IMG/VR virus record: IMGVR_UViG_3300032268_001296
Coordinates: 1 to 64,000 of that record
Strand: one strand, 5' to 3'
DNA length: 64,000 nucleotides
Source: a virus
The translations under genes and the position numbers were made by a program. Shown here in pieces: positions 5,292 through 61,543 of this stretch (its first letter is position 1; every line of letters starts with the position of its first letter). The notes under the pieces were generated by a model. That model worked only from the letters and a program-made list of their open reading frames with translations. It was not told where the DNA came from and made no database searches.

Positions 5292-5306
5292 ATAATTATT
5301 TACACA

Positions 5307-5432
5307 TTAAATTGAGTTTTGTTCTTTTTTATCTCTAAGTTTTAAATCTTGAAATTTTTTAAGCTGATCTTTTGAGAGTTTTTTCCCTGATTTCTTTTTA
5401 AAAATGCTTAAAAAGAGAGCGAGAAGTTTCAT
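5307..5432 (-). CDS. small basic protein (41 aa) in lysis cassette
   Basis: Translated by hand: MKLLALFLSIFKKKSGKKLSKDQLKKFQ...; ATGA overlap with the upstream gene. Confidence 0.45.
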   Translation of the reverse strand: MKLLALFLSIFKKKSGKKLSKDQLKKFQDLKLRDKKEQNSI

Positions 5433-9501: not shown

Positions 9502-9786
9502 TAGCCATGGTCGGACTCGAACCGACAAGCCCGAAGGCGGCAGATTTTCTTACCACTATAGTTTTCACTACCTTTACAGTTTGTGGTCTGGACTATACCT
9601 TGATCATAGTATTTCTACTTTAGATCCTTGCCGTCTAGTCTCTACACCTTCCTAATTTCTTAGGCTTGGCTCGGTATTAGCATTTTAAAGCCTTCACCGA
9701 ATTTGACAAGTTCTACTCCCACCGTTTCCGATGAGGCACTCAAATTATCTATAAGTCTGCTGTGTTTACCATTTCACCACATGGCC
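9502..9786 (-). tRNA. tRNA-Leu(TAA) interrupted by a group I intron
   Basis: 5' exon ends GCAGACTT and 3' exon starts AAAATCTGC; joining gives GCAGA-CTTAAAA-TCTGC with a long variable arm. Confidence 0.92.
9549..9752 (-). mobile_element. self-splicing group I intron (IC3-like), about 204 nt, no ORF
   Basis: P AAATTCGGTGAA, Q AATACCGAGCC, R GTGTAGAGACTAGACGG, S AAGGTATAGTCC; exon U before the 5' splice site; terminal G. Confidence 0.9.
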
Positions 9787-12167: not shown

Positions 12168-12171
12168 GGAA

Positions 12172-12403
12172 AATTTCGTGATTGTAACACTTCCGAAGAA
12201 GATAGTCAACCTTCAAAGCTTTCGCTCCAGCAAACAGTTACATAACAAGCTTCACGCAGCCGAGGCATCCTTCCCAAGAGTCACCTTGAGCTAGACTTGC
12301 GATTTTTACCAGTATTACTGGCTTCCCTTCATGTGGACTCAATGGTGCCTTACCATCAAGTGTCTATCGCGAACACACTAGCTGATGACTAGTCAGCGTG
12401 TCT
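12172..12403 (-). ncRNA. unassigned structured RNA, about 230 nt
   Basis: Many nested helices, GAAA and UUCG tetraloops, two possible pseudoknots; no convincing ORF. Confidence 0.6.
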
Positions 12404-12412
12404 TTTTTAAAT

Positions 12413-12526
12413 TGGAGTTTCTCGCTACAAGATCTCACAGACTGCTAATCCTGTGACGTTTCGTTGTCCTACTAGTTGCATTCTTGTAATTCACCTCGTC
12501 AGCTATATCTGCACAATACGAGAAAC
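12413..12526 (-). ncRNA. unassigned small RNA with terminal helix plus UCCA
   Basis: GTTTCTCG/CGAGAAAC closing stem; internal TACAAGA/TCTTGTA and TCACAG/CTGTGA helices. Confidence 0.55.
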
Positions 12527-12530
12527 AAAT

Positions 12531-12604
12531 TGGAGCTTGGAGTTTTTGTAGAGTCTTGAGGTACCGCCCCTCATTATGCATGCTCTTCCAGACCCTCTCC
12601 AAGC
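12531..12604 (-). ncRNA. tRNA-minihelix-like small RNA with terminal helix plus UCCA
   Basis: GCTTGGAG/CTCCAAGC stem; inner 7-bp stem stacked on a TGAGG-GGCGGTA-CCTCA T-arm-like hairpin. Confidence 0.55.
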
Positions 12605-12879
12605 AAATTTGTTAGATCTTCATCCCAGCGTTGATGGAACGTTTCTTCTCCATCGTCACCGCTAACCAACCAATCGATTCTTTGTGCCATGATAGCAGCT
12701 TGACTTAGAATGTCAACGGCGGTTCGGAACTTTTGGATCGTGCCATCGCTGTAGCTGCGGATGGCGACGGTGCCGTATTCATTGGTCTGATCAGAATTGT
12801 TATTCTTGATCAGACGCTCGATCTCTCTAGCGATTTCGAAAATGTCGTATTGTTTGTAATCAAAATGTCCTCCGCTCAT
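12574..12879 (-). CDS. hypothetical phage protein (MSGGHFDY start)
   Basis: MSGG.FDY...IDWL.SGD.GE pattern; TATAAT-6nt-ATG upstream. Confidence 0.7.
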   Translation of the reverse strand: MSGGHFDYKQYDIFEIAREIERLIKNNNSDQTNEYGTVAIRSYSDGTIQKFRTAVDILSQAAIMAQRIDWLVSGDDGEETFHQRWDEDLTNLLGEGLEEHA

Positions 12880-12912
12880 ACTGTAATTATATTAGTGTTC
12901 CTTTGAATTTGA

Positions 12913-12984
12913 CTCCCAGTCTTGGCAACGATCCAAGCTCACACCGCTTAACAGGCGGGCCGCACCCCATGTGCGTTACTGAGA
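12913..12984 (-). tRNA. tRNA-Asn(GTT), atypical D/T loops
   Basis: Loop CTGTTAA; G73; T-loop ATCGTTG; A at position 8. Confidence 0.8.
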
Positions 12985-13022
12985 TTTAAATTTTTTTCTT
13001 TCTTCTGCAAAGAAATTAAAAG

Positions 13023-13093
13023 TAGGGGTAGAAGGTAACGCTCCTTCTTCTACGGTTTAAAAGACCGTTACATCACTTTAATGTTTTACCCCC
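13023..13093 (-). tRNA. tRNA-Lys(TTT), atypical D/T loops
   Basis: ACGGT-CTTTTAA-ACCGT arm; T-loop AGCGTTA; A at position 8. Confidence 0.8.
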
Positions 13094-13101
13094 TAAAAAC
13101 A

Positions 13102-13194
13102 TTCTACCGTGCAGGATTCGCCCGACTCAAACAATCAGGCCGAAGCACTACGATCATTATATCACCGTTCCTTATAGGCTCTTATCAGGTAGAA
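13102..13194 (-). ncRNA. unassigned structured small RNA
   Basis: TTCTACC/GGTAGAA closing stem, two hairpins, possible AGGA/TCCT pseudoknot. Confidence 0.45.
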
Positions 13195-13198
13195 AAAG

Positions 13199-13269
13199 CA
13201 GGCATAGAGGGAGTCGAACCCCCACACACTGAGTCAAAGTCAGTTGCGCTACCATTACGCTATATGCCA
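13199..13269 (-). tRNA. tRNA-Gln(TTG)
   Basis: ACTGA-CTTTGAC-TCAGT arm. Confidence 0.9.
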
Positions 13270-13278
13270 ATTAAAAGG

Positions 13279-13365
13279 CGGGTGCGGTAGGATTCGAACC
13301 CACGGAGGCTTTGAGACCCCTCTAGTTTTCAAGACTAGCACAATCGACCACTCTGTCACACACCC
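13279..13365 (-). tRNA. tRNA-Ser(TGA)
   Basis: CTAGT-CTTGAAA-ACTAG arm, long variable arm, G73. Confidence 0.92.
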
Positions 13366-13376
13366 ATAAAAAATCT

Positions 13377-13478
13377 TAAACATGGCGGGGATTGAACCCG
13401 CGTCGTCAGAGCTTCTCTCTTTTGCGGTGTAGCTTACCATCATAGAGAAGATGTGATCTACCACTGAACTACATGTTT
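13377..13478 (-). ncRNA. tRNA-like RNA with an expanded anticodon arm
   Basis: Recognisable acceptor, D- and T-arms, but about 47 nt in place of the 17-nt anticodon arm. Confidence 0.65.
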
Positions 13479-13481
13479 AAT

Positions 13482-13558
13482 TGGTCTGGTATGTAGGATT
13501 TGAACCTACGATCTCCTGAATCCAAATCAGGCGCGATACCAAGCTTCGCTAATACCAG
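13482..13558 (-). tRNA. tRNA-Pro(TGG), CCA encoded
   Basis: CCTGA-TTTGGAT-TCAGG arm. Confidence 0.92.
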
Positions 13559-13567
13559 ATATTTGAT

Positions 13568-13633
13568 TGGTGGGTTCCAGATTCATAGCGCCGTCTTAGG
13601 CTACGTTCCTAAGTGCATTTTGATCCTTCCCCC
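13568..13633 (-). ncRNA. unassigned pseudoknotted small RNA ending ACCA
   Basis: GGG/CCC, symmetric GGAA/GGAA loop, GGAT/ATCT, CTTAGG/CCTAAG hairpin; CGTAGC can pair with downstream GCTATG. Confidence 0.45.
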
Positions 13634-13644
13634 ATTAAAAAGAG

Positions 13645-13715
13645 TGCGGGATGAGAGAATCGAACTCTCGACTTCAGCTTGGAAGGCTATTGTTTTACCA
13701 TTAAACTAATCCCGC
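13645..13715 (-). tRNA. tRNA-Gly(TCC), A73
   Basis: Loop CTTCCAA; GCGGGAT acceptor strand. Confidence 0.9.
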
Positions 13716-13720
13716 GAAAT

Positions 13721-13789
13721 TGGTTGCTCGCCGTCTAGTTCTCACAGCACAGGCTATCCTGATCGCGACATGCAGGATTCCAGCGAGCA
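13721..13789 (-). ncRNA. unassigned small RNA with 9-bp terminal helix plus ACCA
   Basis: TGCTCGCTG/CGGCGAGCA stem; ATCCTG/CAGGAT hairpin; possible loop-loop pairing. Confidence 0.55.
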
Positions 13790-13796
13790 TTGAAAG

Positions 13797-13825
13797 TAGG
13801 TCGTGAGGGAATCGAACCCCCGTTG
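13797..13825 (-). pseudogene. 3' half of a tRNA (T-arm and acceptor 3' strand only)
   Basis: GGGGG-TTCGATT-CCCTC-ACGACCT-A with no matching 5' half; abuts the HNH gene insertion. Confidence 0.65.
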
Positions 13826-13870
13826 ATTTTTTTTTTGAACGATGTTGTATTCATTCGTGTAAATACTAAT

Positions 13871-14392
13871 ATGAAATGCTTACATTGTCAAGAAGAAACT
13901 AAAAATCCAAAATTTTGCTGTCGTACTTGTGCAGCGATATATAATAATAAAAAAAGTCCAAAAAGAAAATTAACTAGATTGTGTTCATGTTTAGACTGCA
14001 AAAACATAGTAAGAAACTATAGATCTTCTCTATGCGAGACTCACTATCAAGAGTATTTAAAATGTAAAAAAGATTCTATACTAGAGACTACGATAGGAGA
14101 ATATAGAGATAGAAACAAATTGCTTCATAGTTCATCAACTCATGCACACATAAGAGGATTAGCGAGAAGCTGGTTCAAAGAGTTAACAAAAAAACCATGT
14201 GCTGCTTGTGGTTATAATAAGCATGTTGAACTGTGCCATATTAAATCGATGGCTTCTTTTGCAGAAGATAGCTTAATTAAGGAAGTAAACAACAAAGACA
14301 ATATCGTTCAATTATGTCCAAATTGCCATTGGGAATTTGACAATGGTTTATTAAACAGAGAGCAGGGATGGCAGGACTCGAACCTGCATTGA
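13871..14392 (+). CDS. HNH endonuclease (homing-type), antisense to the tRNA array
   Basis: N-terminal C..C/KFCC..C zinc finger; C..CG..ELCHI...N...LCPNCHWEFD motif; GTGTAA-N8-ATG. Confidence 0.85.
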   Translation: MKCLHCQEETKNPKFCCRTCAAIYNNKKSPKRKLTRLCSCLDCKNIVRNYRSSLCETHYQEYLKCKKDSILETTIGEYRDRNKLLHSSSTHAHIRGLARSWFKELTKKPCAACGYNKHVELCHIKSMASFAEDSLIKEVNNKDNIVQLCPNCHWEFDNGLLNREQGWQDSNLH

Positions 14393-14437
14393 TCCTTTAC
14401 GGTGCCACGCATTAGAAGTGCGTTCCGATACATCCCC
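14363..14437 (-). tRNA. D-armless tRNA-Arg(TCT)-like RNA
   Basis: 7-bp acceptor; 7-nt connector instead of a D-arm; ACGCA-CTTCTAA-TGCGT arm; 19-nt variable region; canonical T-arm. Confidence 0.7.
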
Positions 14438-14680: not shown

Positions 14681-14686
14681 AAAAAA

Positions 14687-14763
14687 GGTAGCGGGTGAGG
14701 CGCTCGAATCCTCCAGAAAAACAGCTTATGAGACTGCCGACTAACCATCTTGTCCTACCCGCT
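14687..14763 (-). tRNA. tRNA with CAT anticodon (Met or Ile2), atypical T-stem
   Basis: GCAGT-CTCATAA-GCTGT arm; A53/G61 mismatch; lacks the three initiator G-C pairs. Confidence 0.8.
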
Positions 14764-14776
14764 ATTAAAAATTTAG

Positions 14777-60571: not shown

Positions 60572-61543
60572 TCAAAATAATTCAAGTTCATCAAAACATT
60601 GAGATTTTTTAGAATACCCAATATCTTTACTATGAAAGAAGTCGGTCATGTTATTCCCTAAAAGCTCTTCATCGAACCAAGTCGTTAATGATAACAGATC
60701 TTGATCAATTTCAAAGACTTTTTTAAAGCCAATTTGAGCCATCGATTCATTGATTCTGTTTTTGATGAACTCTTTGAGAATTGGTGCAGACAAAAACTCT
60801 TCATTCAATCCATTGATCATCCAGTCTACAATCTTGCTTTCAGATTCAAAAGCTTGAACTGCTTCATGAGCGATCTTTGACTCAAGATCAGAATCAAATA
60901 GTTCTGGATACTCTTCTCTGATAGTATTGATAATTTTGATGCCAACTAGAGCATGGATATTTTCTTCATTGCGAGTGTACTTGACTTGTTGATCAGTATC
61001 CTTCAATACATTTTTGAAACGAGCAAAATGATTAATAATATAGAACTGACTAAACAAAGAAACGTTTTCAACGAAAAGAGTAAAAAGAATCAAAGCATAC
61101 AAATATTGTTTTTTTGAATCTTTGTAAAATTTGTGAGTATACTTTCTGAGGTATTTAACTCTACCTTGAATCCACTCAAGCTTAAGGTTTTCTTCAAAAA
61201 TATCTTCTAAATCTAAAACGTTAAGAAGCCTTTCATATGCATTGTTGTGAATAACCTCCACGTTGGCCATAACGTAGCCTAAATCCTGCATGGATGGGTG
61301 TGGGAGGTTGTCTCCAAGCTTTGCCCAAAAGGTCTTTACGGCGACTTCTATTTGCCCAATTGCCGAAAGGGTTCTCACGATCACTTCTCTTTCTTGATCG
61401 GTGAGAGAGACCTTAAATTGTTGAACATCAGACTTGAAATTGAACTCCTTGTCAGTCCAAAAGCCATTATGCATTGCCTCTATAAATTGCTCTGTCCATG
61501 GGTATCTATTTGGCTTTCTTGAAACTTGCTCGGTAAAAATCAT
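60572..61543 (-). CDS. nrdB: ribonucleotide reductase class I beta subunit
   Basis: FW...E, E..H..AY, ENVSLFSQF, EE..H and DFF. Confidence 0.93.
   Translation of the reverse strand: MIFTEQVSRKPNRYPWTEQFIEAMHNGFWTDKEFNFKSDVQQFKVSLTDQEREVIVRTLSAIGQIEVAVKTFWAKLGDNLPHPSMQDLGYVMANVEVIHNNAYERLLNVLDLEDIFEENLKLEWIQGRVKYLRKYTHKFYKDSKKQYLYALILFTLFVENVSLFSQFYIINHFARFKNVLKDTDQQVKYTRNEENIHALVGIKIINTIREEYPELFDSDLESKIAHEAVQAFESESKIVDWMINGLNEEFLSAPILKEFIKNRINESMAQIGFKKVFEIDQDLLSLTTWFDEELLGNNMTDFFHSKDIGYSKKSQCFDELELF

Follow-up and report, generated by a model that had tools for sequence, protein, structure and literature searches.

The stretch of DNA analysed here, the window, comprises 64,000 nucleotides, namely positions 1 to 64,000 of the IMG/VR record IMGVR_UViG_3300032268_001296, i.e., the first 64 kb of the 112-kb record (estimated completeness 87%) of an uncultured virus, and the subject of the analysis are four small elements, E1 to E4, that are interleaved with the tRNA genes of this virus and in which a helix joining the 5′ and 3′ ends is directly followed by NCCA. 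The G+C content of the window is 34%, the virus is detected chiefly in freshwater metagenomes and its proteins have only remote relatives among GenBank phages, the DnaE-type polymerase displaying at most 33% identity. A head-to-tail array of RNA genes extends on the minus strand from ~14.9 to 9.8 kb of the window and contains 16 tRNAs recognized by ARAGORN plus three atypical ones found by Rfam only, most of them spaced by just 5–11 nt; outside this main array a tmRNA and one further tRNA are found by Rfam at 7.8–8.2 kb. Two terminator-like hairpins and promoter-like sites lie on the 5′ side of the array, and a search for intrinsic terminators on the minus strand between the array modules gave none. 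The gaps separating E1–E4 from the adjoining genes (4–15 nt) are similar to those between the tRNAs. A first-pass annotation of the window had described these four elements as CCA-ended small RNAs, and their positions, minus-strand orientation and helix plus NCCA proved to have been read correctly:

E1, 13721–13789, minus strand: 69-nt rod-like RNA with a 9-bp closing helix, then ACCA
E2, 13568–13633, minus strand: 66-nt RNA with a GGG...CCC closing stem, then ACCA
E3, 12531–12604, minus strand: 74-nt RNA with closing helix GCUUGGAG...CUCCAAGC, then UCCA
E4, 12413–12526, minus strand: 114-nt RNA with a 9-bp closing helix GUUUCUCG...CGAGAAAC, a three-way junction and a UCCA end

The premise that these elements are not tRNAs is borne out by both ARAGORN and Rfam, since neither the former nor a search with 4227 Rfam families, at E ≤ 1 or at the gathering score, assigned any of the four to tRNA or to another family. 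The 19 surrounding tRNAs score 39–70 bits with the tRNA model RF00005 (threshold 29 bits), with which E1–E4 give no match at E ≤ 1. A T-loop motif (UUCRA, i.e., TTCGA or TTCAA in the DNA) is absent from all four sequences, and none bears the G3:U70 mark of alanine tRNAs, the third pair being C-G in E1, G-C in E2 and U-A in E3 and E4. Among the matches listed by blastn against a collection of GenBank phages none falls on E1–E4, the listed matches covering only tRNA genes and an open reading frame (ORF) of the array.

Conservation and covariation of the elements

Relatives were gathered by using the ORF inside the array as an anchor and by scanning IMG/VR with the conserved cores of the elements; this yielded approximately ten related contigs (designated below by L numbers) plus one 4.7-kb contig that carries E1 and E2 and is binned in a metagenome-assembled genome (MAG) of the Cytophagaceae, a binning that by itself is insufficient to assign a host. 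Sequence identity between copies amounts to 93–96% for E1, 85–97% for E3 and 75–93% for E2, as compared to allele means of 71–86% for the tRNAs and ~75% for nrdB coding DNA, the conservation of the elements thus being no lower than that of the adjoining tRNAs.

E2 is, judging from its variants, the best supported of the four elements. Inside its 3-bp closing stem and a GGAA/GGAA internal loop, two helices of 6 bp (with a bulged A) and 3 bp lead to a terminal hairpin, the stem of which has 6 bp and the loop 7 nt. It was found in five contigs as three further sequence variants, so that four distinct sequences are available (window, L106/L107, L105 and L001/L115), in which all 84 cells of the 21-pair structure are occupied by standard pairs (100%); six of the 21 pairs are compensated on both sides, a result matched by none of 500 shuffles, and controls in which the partner strands were slid against each other are paired to 23–42%. 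The first-pass annotation had considered E2 to be the weakest element on account of its 3-bp closing stem and of a CCA that might itself be paired. Neither objection stands, for E2 displays the strongest covariation of the set and the closing stem itself covaries (GGG/CCC → GAG/CUC); this settles the register, in which the CCA is free, in disagreement with the fold predicted from the single sequence. The symmetric GGAA/GGAA loop between the closing stem and the next helix is invariant and could form four tandem G·A pairs; if so, the stack starting from the CCA would comprise ~13 layers, which is the length of the acceptor/T-arm stack of a tRNA. Also invariant, while the helices covary, is the sequence CGUAG of the hairpin loop, which is complementary to CUAUG, CUACG or CUGCG downstream; because two of the partner positions sit in a covarying helix, only a 3-bp pseudoknot, which the loop may form, is compatible with the structure.

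The location of E2 is not fixed. It lies between tRNA-Gly and tRNA-Pro in the window and ahead of tRNA-Arg(UCU) in L001, and occupies three different slots; it also occurs in L105, an unrelated phage (nrdB identity only 30%) in which E2 ends a chain consisting of the 3′ end of a tmRNA and a tRNA-like RNA with G3:U70, with no tRNA behind. The latter unit (complement of ~5368–5480 of L105, 112 nt, between the tmRNA and E2 and directly upstream of E2 at 5301–5367) is an odd alanine-type tRNA mimic: its acceptor of 7 bp includes G3:U70 and is followed by A73 and an encoded CCA, and two T-arm-like hairpins (GGGUUCGAUUCCC twice) are found in its interior.

In E3 an 8-bp closing helix is stacked on a 7-bp helix, and the structure is completed by an internal loop, by a hairpin of 5 bp and, in the 3′ strand, by the bulge ACAAAAA; the element ends in UCCA in the window and in GCCA in some relatives. 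Its presence in seven contigs as five further variants provides, with the window, six distinct sequences; 99.2% of the cells are paired and three pairs, in two helices, are compensated, a covariation score that was reached by one of 500 shuffles (slid controls, 23–58% paired). The 8-bp closing helix and the ACAAAAA bulge are invariant. The 5′ strand of E3 overlaps the end of a protein gene:

ORF, 12574–12879, minus strand: 101 amino acids, phrog_6724 (function not assigned, no Pfam family), whose last 31 nt including the stop codon are the 5′ strand of E3

This ORF is present at E3 in the window and in L001–L004, its stop codon being located 12 nt earlier in L002–L004, where E3 is retained; it is missing from L083/L090/L106, where E3 is kept, 14–15 nt behind tRNA-Asn. 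Since E3 stands alone behind tRNA-Asn in these relatives, the ORF can be regarded as an insertion, and the comparison of the loci indicates that it arrived later, its final codons and stop being supplied by the 5′ strand of E3. The possibility that E3 is a part of the ORF message was discarded because E3 exists without the ORF and distant ORF homologues lack an E3-like element (six of 65 loci give a score, two true copies included). The ORF has 192 relatives in viral contigs and recurs inside a tRNA array in a second, unrelated phage group (L020, L022 and L027, with 25 tRNAs each).

The closing helix of E1, UGCUCGC...GCGAGCA, consists of seven Watson-Crick pairs beside the tail and of nine pairs when a U·G and a G-C are included. 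The element lies 5 nt ahead of tRNA-Gly and, in the relatives, 5–7 nt behind tRNA-Arg(UCU). It is present in seven contigs besides the window, the copies that are 93–96% identical being those of L001/L087, L004/L085, L083/L090, L086, L089 and L115. Six positions change over five variants, and three of the changes are one-sided replacements within pairs that leave the pairing intact (G-C to G·U, U·G to U-A), so that the fold is consistent with the variants but unproven. E4, which starts 4 nt behind E3, is the weakest of the four. Only two copies are known, the second being that of L004/L085 (86% identity), in which two internal pairs are compensated (UACAAGA/UCUUGUA versus UACAAAG/CUUUGUA) and the CCA is kept; E4 is missing from L001–L003 and from a relative represented in contigs of RNA libraries.

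Covariance models were built for E2 (R1) and E3 (R2); applied to ~325 kb of loci they returned the known copies only and no divergent ones. The single match obtained for E2 in a metagenome scan (L109) is unrelated, L108, L110 and L111 are partial chance matches, and the matches of the E4 core scan are likewise due to chance, L085 excepted. A fifth candidate, a 75-nt unit ending in ACCA in L083/L106, turned out to be tRNA-Phe(GAA) with a degenerate T-loop.

Could the helices and the CCA be coincidental, occurring in spacer DNA that is somewhat richer in G+C, or could the elements be decayed tRNA genes in which the acceptor stem and the CCA were retained while the interior drifted? A loose motif (7-bp helix, any base and CCA, span 45–200) is indeed frequent, with 161 occurrences on both strands of the window and ~6 expected in the array, and in the pooled spacers of related arrays the loose scan finds a helix ahead of CCA no more often than ahead of several other trinucleotides; moreover, the fold energies of the elements are unremarkable with respect to those of shuffled sequences (z = −1.1 to −2.2). 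Being common by chance, the loose motif was abandoned as evidence and replaced by a slot-filling test, in which the structure must start 4–15 nt behind the previous gene and end 4–9 nt ahead of the next. A slot-filling helix with NCCA arose in 9, 3 and 25 of 20,000 dinucleotide shuffles of the slots of E1, E4 and E3, respectively, i.e., with p of ~1e-4 to 1e-3 per slot. Together with the conservation over approximately ten contigs and the covariation of E2 and E3, which refute coincidence for E1–E3, this makes an origin by chance a negligible prospect. The decay of tRNA genes, in turn, would fit the tRNA-like size of E1–E3 (66–74 nt), the abundance of atypical tRNAs in the array, which also holds a truncated one, and the decaying closing helix of E4 in L004. 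Yet compensatory changes maintain helices of E2 and E3 that do not belong to a cloverleaf, which largely refutes this origin for these two elements; furthermore, the elements are more alike between relatives than the functional tRNAs alongside, no residual similarity to the tRNA model is detected at E ≤ 1 and relics of CCA-less tRNAs are unlikely to bear an encoded CCA. Decay is thus very improbable.

Encoded CCA and the proposed maturation by RNase P

The CCA is invariant in all 17 element copies, distributed over eight arrays, while the discriminator (U or G in E3/E4) and the bases that follow vary, which supports the view that the NCCA is under selection. When all modules of the window are counted, so as to escape the selection made by the first-pass annotation, a CCA is encoded by four of the six T-arm-less modules (E1–E4, as opposed to two further modules, S5 and S6) but by only one of the 21 RNAs endowed with a T-arm (Fisher p = 0.004), the latter including the three Rfam-only tRNAs, the phage tmRNA and a tRNA-like RNA with a long anticodon arm. 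The one case is tRNA-Pro, in agreement with the earlier remark that among the tRNAs of the window this one alone encodes a full CCA. In the eight related arrays the CCA is encoded by eight of 110 tRNAs and is lacking in the other 102, of which 81 have TTT directly behind them. These data suggest a T-arm rule (no T-arm, CCA encoded; T-arm, CCA not encoded) that is a tendency and not strict.

Some additional observations concern the same ends. The TTT(T) behind the CCA-less tRNAs, seen in the array at 9.8–14.9 kb and in loci L083–L106, constitutes a conserved trailer or leader signal; in the E elements the CCA is followed by one base and then TTT, and the tRNA genes of the Cytophagaceae MAG, approximately two thirds of which lack CCA, do not have this signal. 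The tRNA-Phe(GAA) of L083 (3674–3748) and L106 (5125–5199), which ARAGORN misses, has a degenerate T-loop and an encoded ACCA and is therefore another case in which a weak T-arm is paired with an encoded CCA.

RNase Z and the CCA-adding enzyme both read the T-arm. Bacterial RNase P, for its part, recognizes the T-loop, the stack of acceptor and T-stem and a U(−1)/G(+1) junction; the 3′ RCCA is read as well, through pairing to the L15 loop of the enzyme, and in two natural substrates, pre-4.5S RNA and phage C4 RNA, an extended stem replaces the T-loop (PMC10731613). Comparable features are found in the elements: an extended helix joining the 5′ and 3′ ends takes the place of the T-loop in their folds or consensus structures, with the exception of the broken one in the E4 homologue; NCCA stands directly behind the closing helix, N being a purine (A) in E1 and E2 and U or G in E3 and E4; the junction is U(−1)/G(+1) in E2, E3 and the E4 of the window and A(−1)/U(+1) in E1. 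No leader able to pair with the CCA was found, G(−2)G(−1) occurring in no element copy.

Taken together, the data are best accommodated by a reading in which E1, E2, E3 and probably E4 are genes for small structured non-coding RNAs that are independent modules of the tRNA transcription unit; to this reading as a whole, including the maturation described below, we attach a probability of roughly 0.55. The independence of the modules follows from the occurrence of E3 with or without the ORF, of E2 in varied slots and in an unrelated phage, and of E4 in some arrays and not in others. For the single elements, the claim to be a functional structured RNA can be made with great confidence in the case of E2 and with high confidence in that of E3; E1 is probably functional too, and E4 has an even chance of being so. 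The claim of the first-pass annotation that these are structured non-tRNA modules interleaved with the tRNA genes is supported; overall, the original observation is confirmed and its first interpretation partly supported, the release of stable RNAs, their aminoacylation and the decoy or sponge roles proposed there being conjectural.

A maturation of the RNase P type is the other part of this reading, and the odds for it are a little better than even. Host RNase P would cut at the 5′ end of the closing helix; lacking a T-loop, the substrate would offer no hold to the specificity domain of the enzyme, and recognition would be supplied by the encoded NCCA and the U(−1)/G(+1) junction, as in pre-4.5S RNA and the C4 RNA of phages P1/P7. 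The 3′ end would be generated by the RNase P cut at the next gene, 4–9 nt downstream, and by exonucleolytic trimming back to the CCA. In these RNAs the CCA would have to be encoded, since RNase Z and the CCA-adding enzyme, as readers of the T-arm, could not serve molecules without one, while the CCA-less RNAs with a T-arm (phage tRNAs, tmRNA and the tRNA-like RNA) presumably acquire their CCA by way of these two enzymes. The expected products are RNAs of 66–114 nt with a tRNA-like acceptor end, which would be set free as small RNAs much as T4 rnaC/rnaD are. The processing is attributed to host enzymes because no CCA-adding enzyme (PF01743), RNA ligase (PF09414) or bacterial RNase P RNA (RF00010) was found in the phage record, estimated to be 87% complete.

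Several facts weigh against this reading, at least in part. Of the expectations raised by the first-pass annotation concerning homologues, the constancy of the NCCA and covariation in E2 and E3 were found, but double (compensatory) changes sought across the E1 variants are absent and the closing helix of E4 is broken in its sole homologue (L004/L085), where three of eight closing pairs are lost. All element families are narrow, being confined to approximately ten related contigs, so that the covariation rests on four to six sequences, and the high identity could be partly a consequence of gene conversion, by which the elements would have spread recently in a mosaic array containing homing endonucleases, and not of selection alone. 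As to the ends, the junction of E1 is A(−1)/U(+1), which is not the optimal one, and the base ahead of the CCA in the E3 and E4 of the window is U, not a purine; the T-arm rule is violated by tRNA-Pro, which has both T-arm and CCA, by S5 and S6, which have neither, and by T-arm RNAs of L105 that encode a CCA. An RNase P cut freeing the 5′ terminus of E3 would leave the ORF without its stop codon, so that release of E3 and an intact ORF message are mutually exclusive on any one transcript. Finally, RNA-library contigs, which come from three riverine studies and extend over S5, E3 and the 3′ part of the ORF of a relative lacking E4, reveal no ends; since they may be DNA carry-over, they speak neither for nor against transcription. 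Four RNA-library runs provided nothing usable over E1 or E2.

E1–E4 are a subset of a larger collection of odd RNAs, the array also containing closed non-tRNA modules without CCA (S5 and S6). S5 (12168–12412, minus strand) is a 245-nt non-coding stretch between E4 and tRNA-Thr that has no Rfam match and is 96–97% identical in L002–L004 and 86% in L001, i.e., above the adjoining protein gene; it looks like a further structured RNA of no known family. S6 (13094–13197, minus strand) is a module of 104 nt that has tRNA-Gln and an atypical tRNA-Lys as its neighbours and is 94–99% conserved in five relatives; UUCUACC/GGUAGAA forms its closing helix, behind which UG and a U-run are found instead of a CCA. 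The atypical tRNA-Lys(UUU) (13023–13093, minus strand) has a non-canonical T-loop and is found by Rfam only. S7 (13377–13478, minus strand) is a 102-nt tRNA-like RNA (Rfam tRNA, 40.9 bits) that is 95–98% conserved in ten loci; its acceptor, D and T arms are normal, the anticodon arm is replaced by a ~9-bp stem with a ~23-nt loop, and no CCA is encoded. Neither is a CCA encoded in the phage tmRNA (7863–8241, minus strand; 124.6 bits), which has a G3:U70 acceptor and the tag peptide GNNKIVSFRKPNYSSKTVAFAA, and behind which tRNA-Ser(GCU) follows at 7 nt. A 94-nt spacer (14682–14775, minus strand) called by neither ARAGORN nor Rfam is tRNA-like in having an acceptor-like helix of 8 bp, a loop with CAU that resembles an anticodon loop, and a weak T-arm, behind which CC and a U-run follow, and a group I intron (9567–9762, minus strand; Rfam, 56.9 bits) adjoins the tRNA-Leu region at the end of the array. 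Next to E1 lies a gene fragment:

tRNA-Arg(UCU) 3′ remnant, 13790–13835, minus strand: T-arm and acceptor strand (~13796–13820), directly upstream of E1, 5′ half missing

The place of its 5′ half is filled by an ORF for an HNH endonuclease (13790–14392, plus strand); the tRNA-Arg(UCU) upstream of E1 is intact in L001, L004, L083, L086 and L089, and another tRNA-Arg(UCU), with an aberrant D region, is located at 14363–14437 of the window.

Possible functions

If the elements are RNA genes, what could be the use of an acceptor-like end on RNAs that do not decode? In E2 and E3 the occurrence of invariant unpaired nucleotides beside covarying helices points to a specific ligand rather than to mere punctuation of the transcript. 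A generalization can be envisaged in which such RNAs make up a hitherto unrecognized class of phage accessory genes: their folds would be unrelated and ligand-specific and would have only the acceptor end (helix, one base, CCA) in common with a tRNA, the tRNA-processing enzymes of the host would mature them, and each would engage a different host factor that reads tRNA 3′ ends; this proposal is tentative and we consider it improbable.

A decoy or sponge function, which would be added to the reading of E1–E4 as RNA genes without replacing it, would consist in the titration by the acceptor-like end of host proteins, such as toxins that cut or modify the 3′ end of tRNA, the CCA-adding enzyme or EF-Tu, so that phage and host tRNAs are spared. 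The acceptor-like end is, in fact, the one feature common to four otherwise unrelated folds, E2 has, like many accessory counter-defence genes, a distribution that includes unrelated phages, and the elements reside in a tRNA array, phage tRNAs being known to counter tRNA-cutting defences (PMC11555353, PMC13096335). These arguments are offset by the lack of a known target and of a recognizable identity set (G3:U70 occurs in none), by the fact that those tRNA-targeting defences that have been studied well cleave in anticodon or variable loops, structures not present here, and by the disproportion between a single gene copy per phage and the abundant tRNA ends of the cell; besides, the conserved interiors differ among the four, which a generic end decoy would not need. 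A function of this type is therefore unlikely. To a similar degree we doubt that the elements act in cis, as folding insulators or as extra RNase P entry sites that determine the order and efficiency with which the polycistronic tRNA precursor is cut, the excised pieces being by-products; such a role can be likened to that of the tRNA-like t-elements by which transcript ends are defined in plant mitochondria. The elements stand exactly between genes with tRNA-like spacing, self-closing spacers that lack a CCA are found elsewhere too (S6 and, in the relatives, the 165-nt spacer between Gly and Pro), and the inserted ORF has E3 at its 3′ end, a position at which processing would set where the message stops. 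However, most tRNAs of the array are 5–11 nt apart and need no insulator, the tRNAs that would be served are less conserved than the elements, and E2 moves among slots and is the last member of the L105 chain, with no tRNA behind. Also, loops and bulges that remain invariant while helices covary (GGAA/GGAA and CGUAG in E2, ACAAAAA in E3) argue for a sequence-specific recognition. Quite unlikely, finally, is a role as antisense regulators matured by RNase P, whose loops would pair with phage or host messages. The C4 RNA of phage P1 is an antisense RNA of this type and, among known phage RNAs, comes nearest to the elements in the architecture of its ends (PMC10731613); moreover, the loop of E1 and the hairpin loop of E2 have complements of 11 and 12 nt, respectively, at adjacent sites in nrdB (61271–61292). 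But complements of this length fall within the range obtained with shuffled elements, and the nrdB site, which is lost in relatives that possess E1 and E2, is neither conserved nor changed in concert with the loops, so that this pairing within the phage was rejected.

Known RNAs of similar type and significance

The claim that the four elements represent an undescribed system was an overstatement, because T4 rnaC/rnaD, the C4 RNA of phage P1 and 4.5S RNA are precedents in kind. With pre-4.5S RNA (of the signal recognition particle, SRP) and the C4 RNA of phages P1/P7 the elements share a long, mostly continuous helix in lieu of the acceptor/T-arm stack, without a T-loop (PMC10731613), the 3′ NCCA directly behind the helix and, at the predicted site of E2, E3 and E4, the U(−1)/G(+1) junction; C4 RNA is, in addition, phage-encoded. 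On the other hand, there is no sequence or Rfam similarity to these RNAs, E1–E4 represent four folds in one operon and are arranged head-to-tail among tRNA genes instead of in an immunity operon, their cleavage is only predicted, and no conserved antisense target was found within the phage.

The stable RNA species 1 and 2 of T4 (rnaC/rnaD) resemble E1–E4 in being small non-tRNA RNAs of unassigned function whose genes belong to a phage tRNA operon, share its strand and stand a few nt from a tRNA gene, in a cluster that includes a homing endonuclease gene. The structures are different (NC_000866): rnaC possesses a canonical T-arm (GGUUCGAAUCC) and has no CCA at its end, while rnaD ends in ...GCGCACC(A) and its ends form no closing helix in the minimum-energy fold, as opposed to E1–E4, which lack any T-arm and encode NCCA. 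No sequence similarity to rnaC/rnaD appears among the matches listed in the search of the phage collection.

Three further groups of RNAs can be compared with the elements. The tRNA-like domain of tmRNA and the 3′ ends of plant RNA viruses also place a tRNA-type CCA acceptor end on a non-decoding RNA, but they keep a T-arm or an equivalent pseudoknot and are aminoacylated by virtue of identity marks, neither of which is present in E1–E4, over which no Rfam match to those families was obtained. The synthetic minihelices accepted by RNase P or the CCA-adding enzyme have, like the elements, a stack of at least ~12 pairs ending in NCCA (8 + 7 bp in E3; 3 bp, four possible G·A pairs and 6 bp in E2), from which E1–E4 differ in being natural, conserved and provided with elaborate interiors (junction, bulges, possible pseudoknot). 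Mimicry of tRNA without decoding is likewise found in the bacterial Y RNAs of the YrlA type, some of which are phage-encoded (PMC4201824); YrlA, however, has mimics of the T- and D-arms and its ends form a Ro-binding stem (PMC4201824), and this family too has no Rfam match in E1–E4.

E1–E4 thus resemble rnaC/rnaD in kind and the 4.5S/C4 substrates in architecture and are homologues of neither. What is new is the occurrence in a single array of four unrelated folds that share only an acceptor-like end, the covariation of E2 and E3, and the contrast in encoded CCA with the RNAs possessing a T-arm. In our literature searches, whose coverage of the older T4/T5 papers is poor, such elements were not described in phage tRNA arrays.

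Phage tRNA arrays are viewed as islands for counter-defence and for the tuning of translation, and annotation pipelines treat the stretches between their tRNAs as empty. The spacers of the present array hold at least three selected RNA genes outside the known families, and the R1 (E2) and R2 (E3) models can seed families of the Rfam type. The T-arm rule translates into a testable prediction, namely a division of labour among RNase P, RNase Z and the CCA-adding enzyme on a mixed precursor. Should a class of accessory RNAs with tRNA-like acceptor ends exist, its members might, for instance, blunt defence toxins that attack tRNA ends or tune CCA repair, RNase P or charging during infection, and E2, with its covarying stems, its invariant GGAA/GGAA loop and its presence in unrelated phages, would be the prototype of a portable module. 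If these RNAs are stable and bind host factors, the list of natural non-tRNA substrates of RNase P would become longer and there would be a renewed chance of understanding the function of T4 rnaC/rnaD, a puzzle that is fifty years old.

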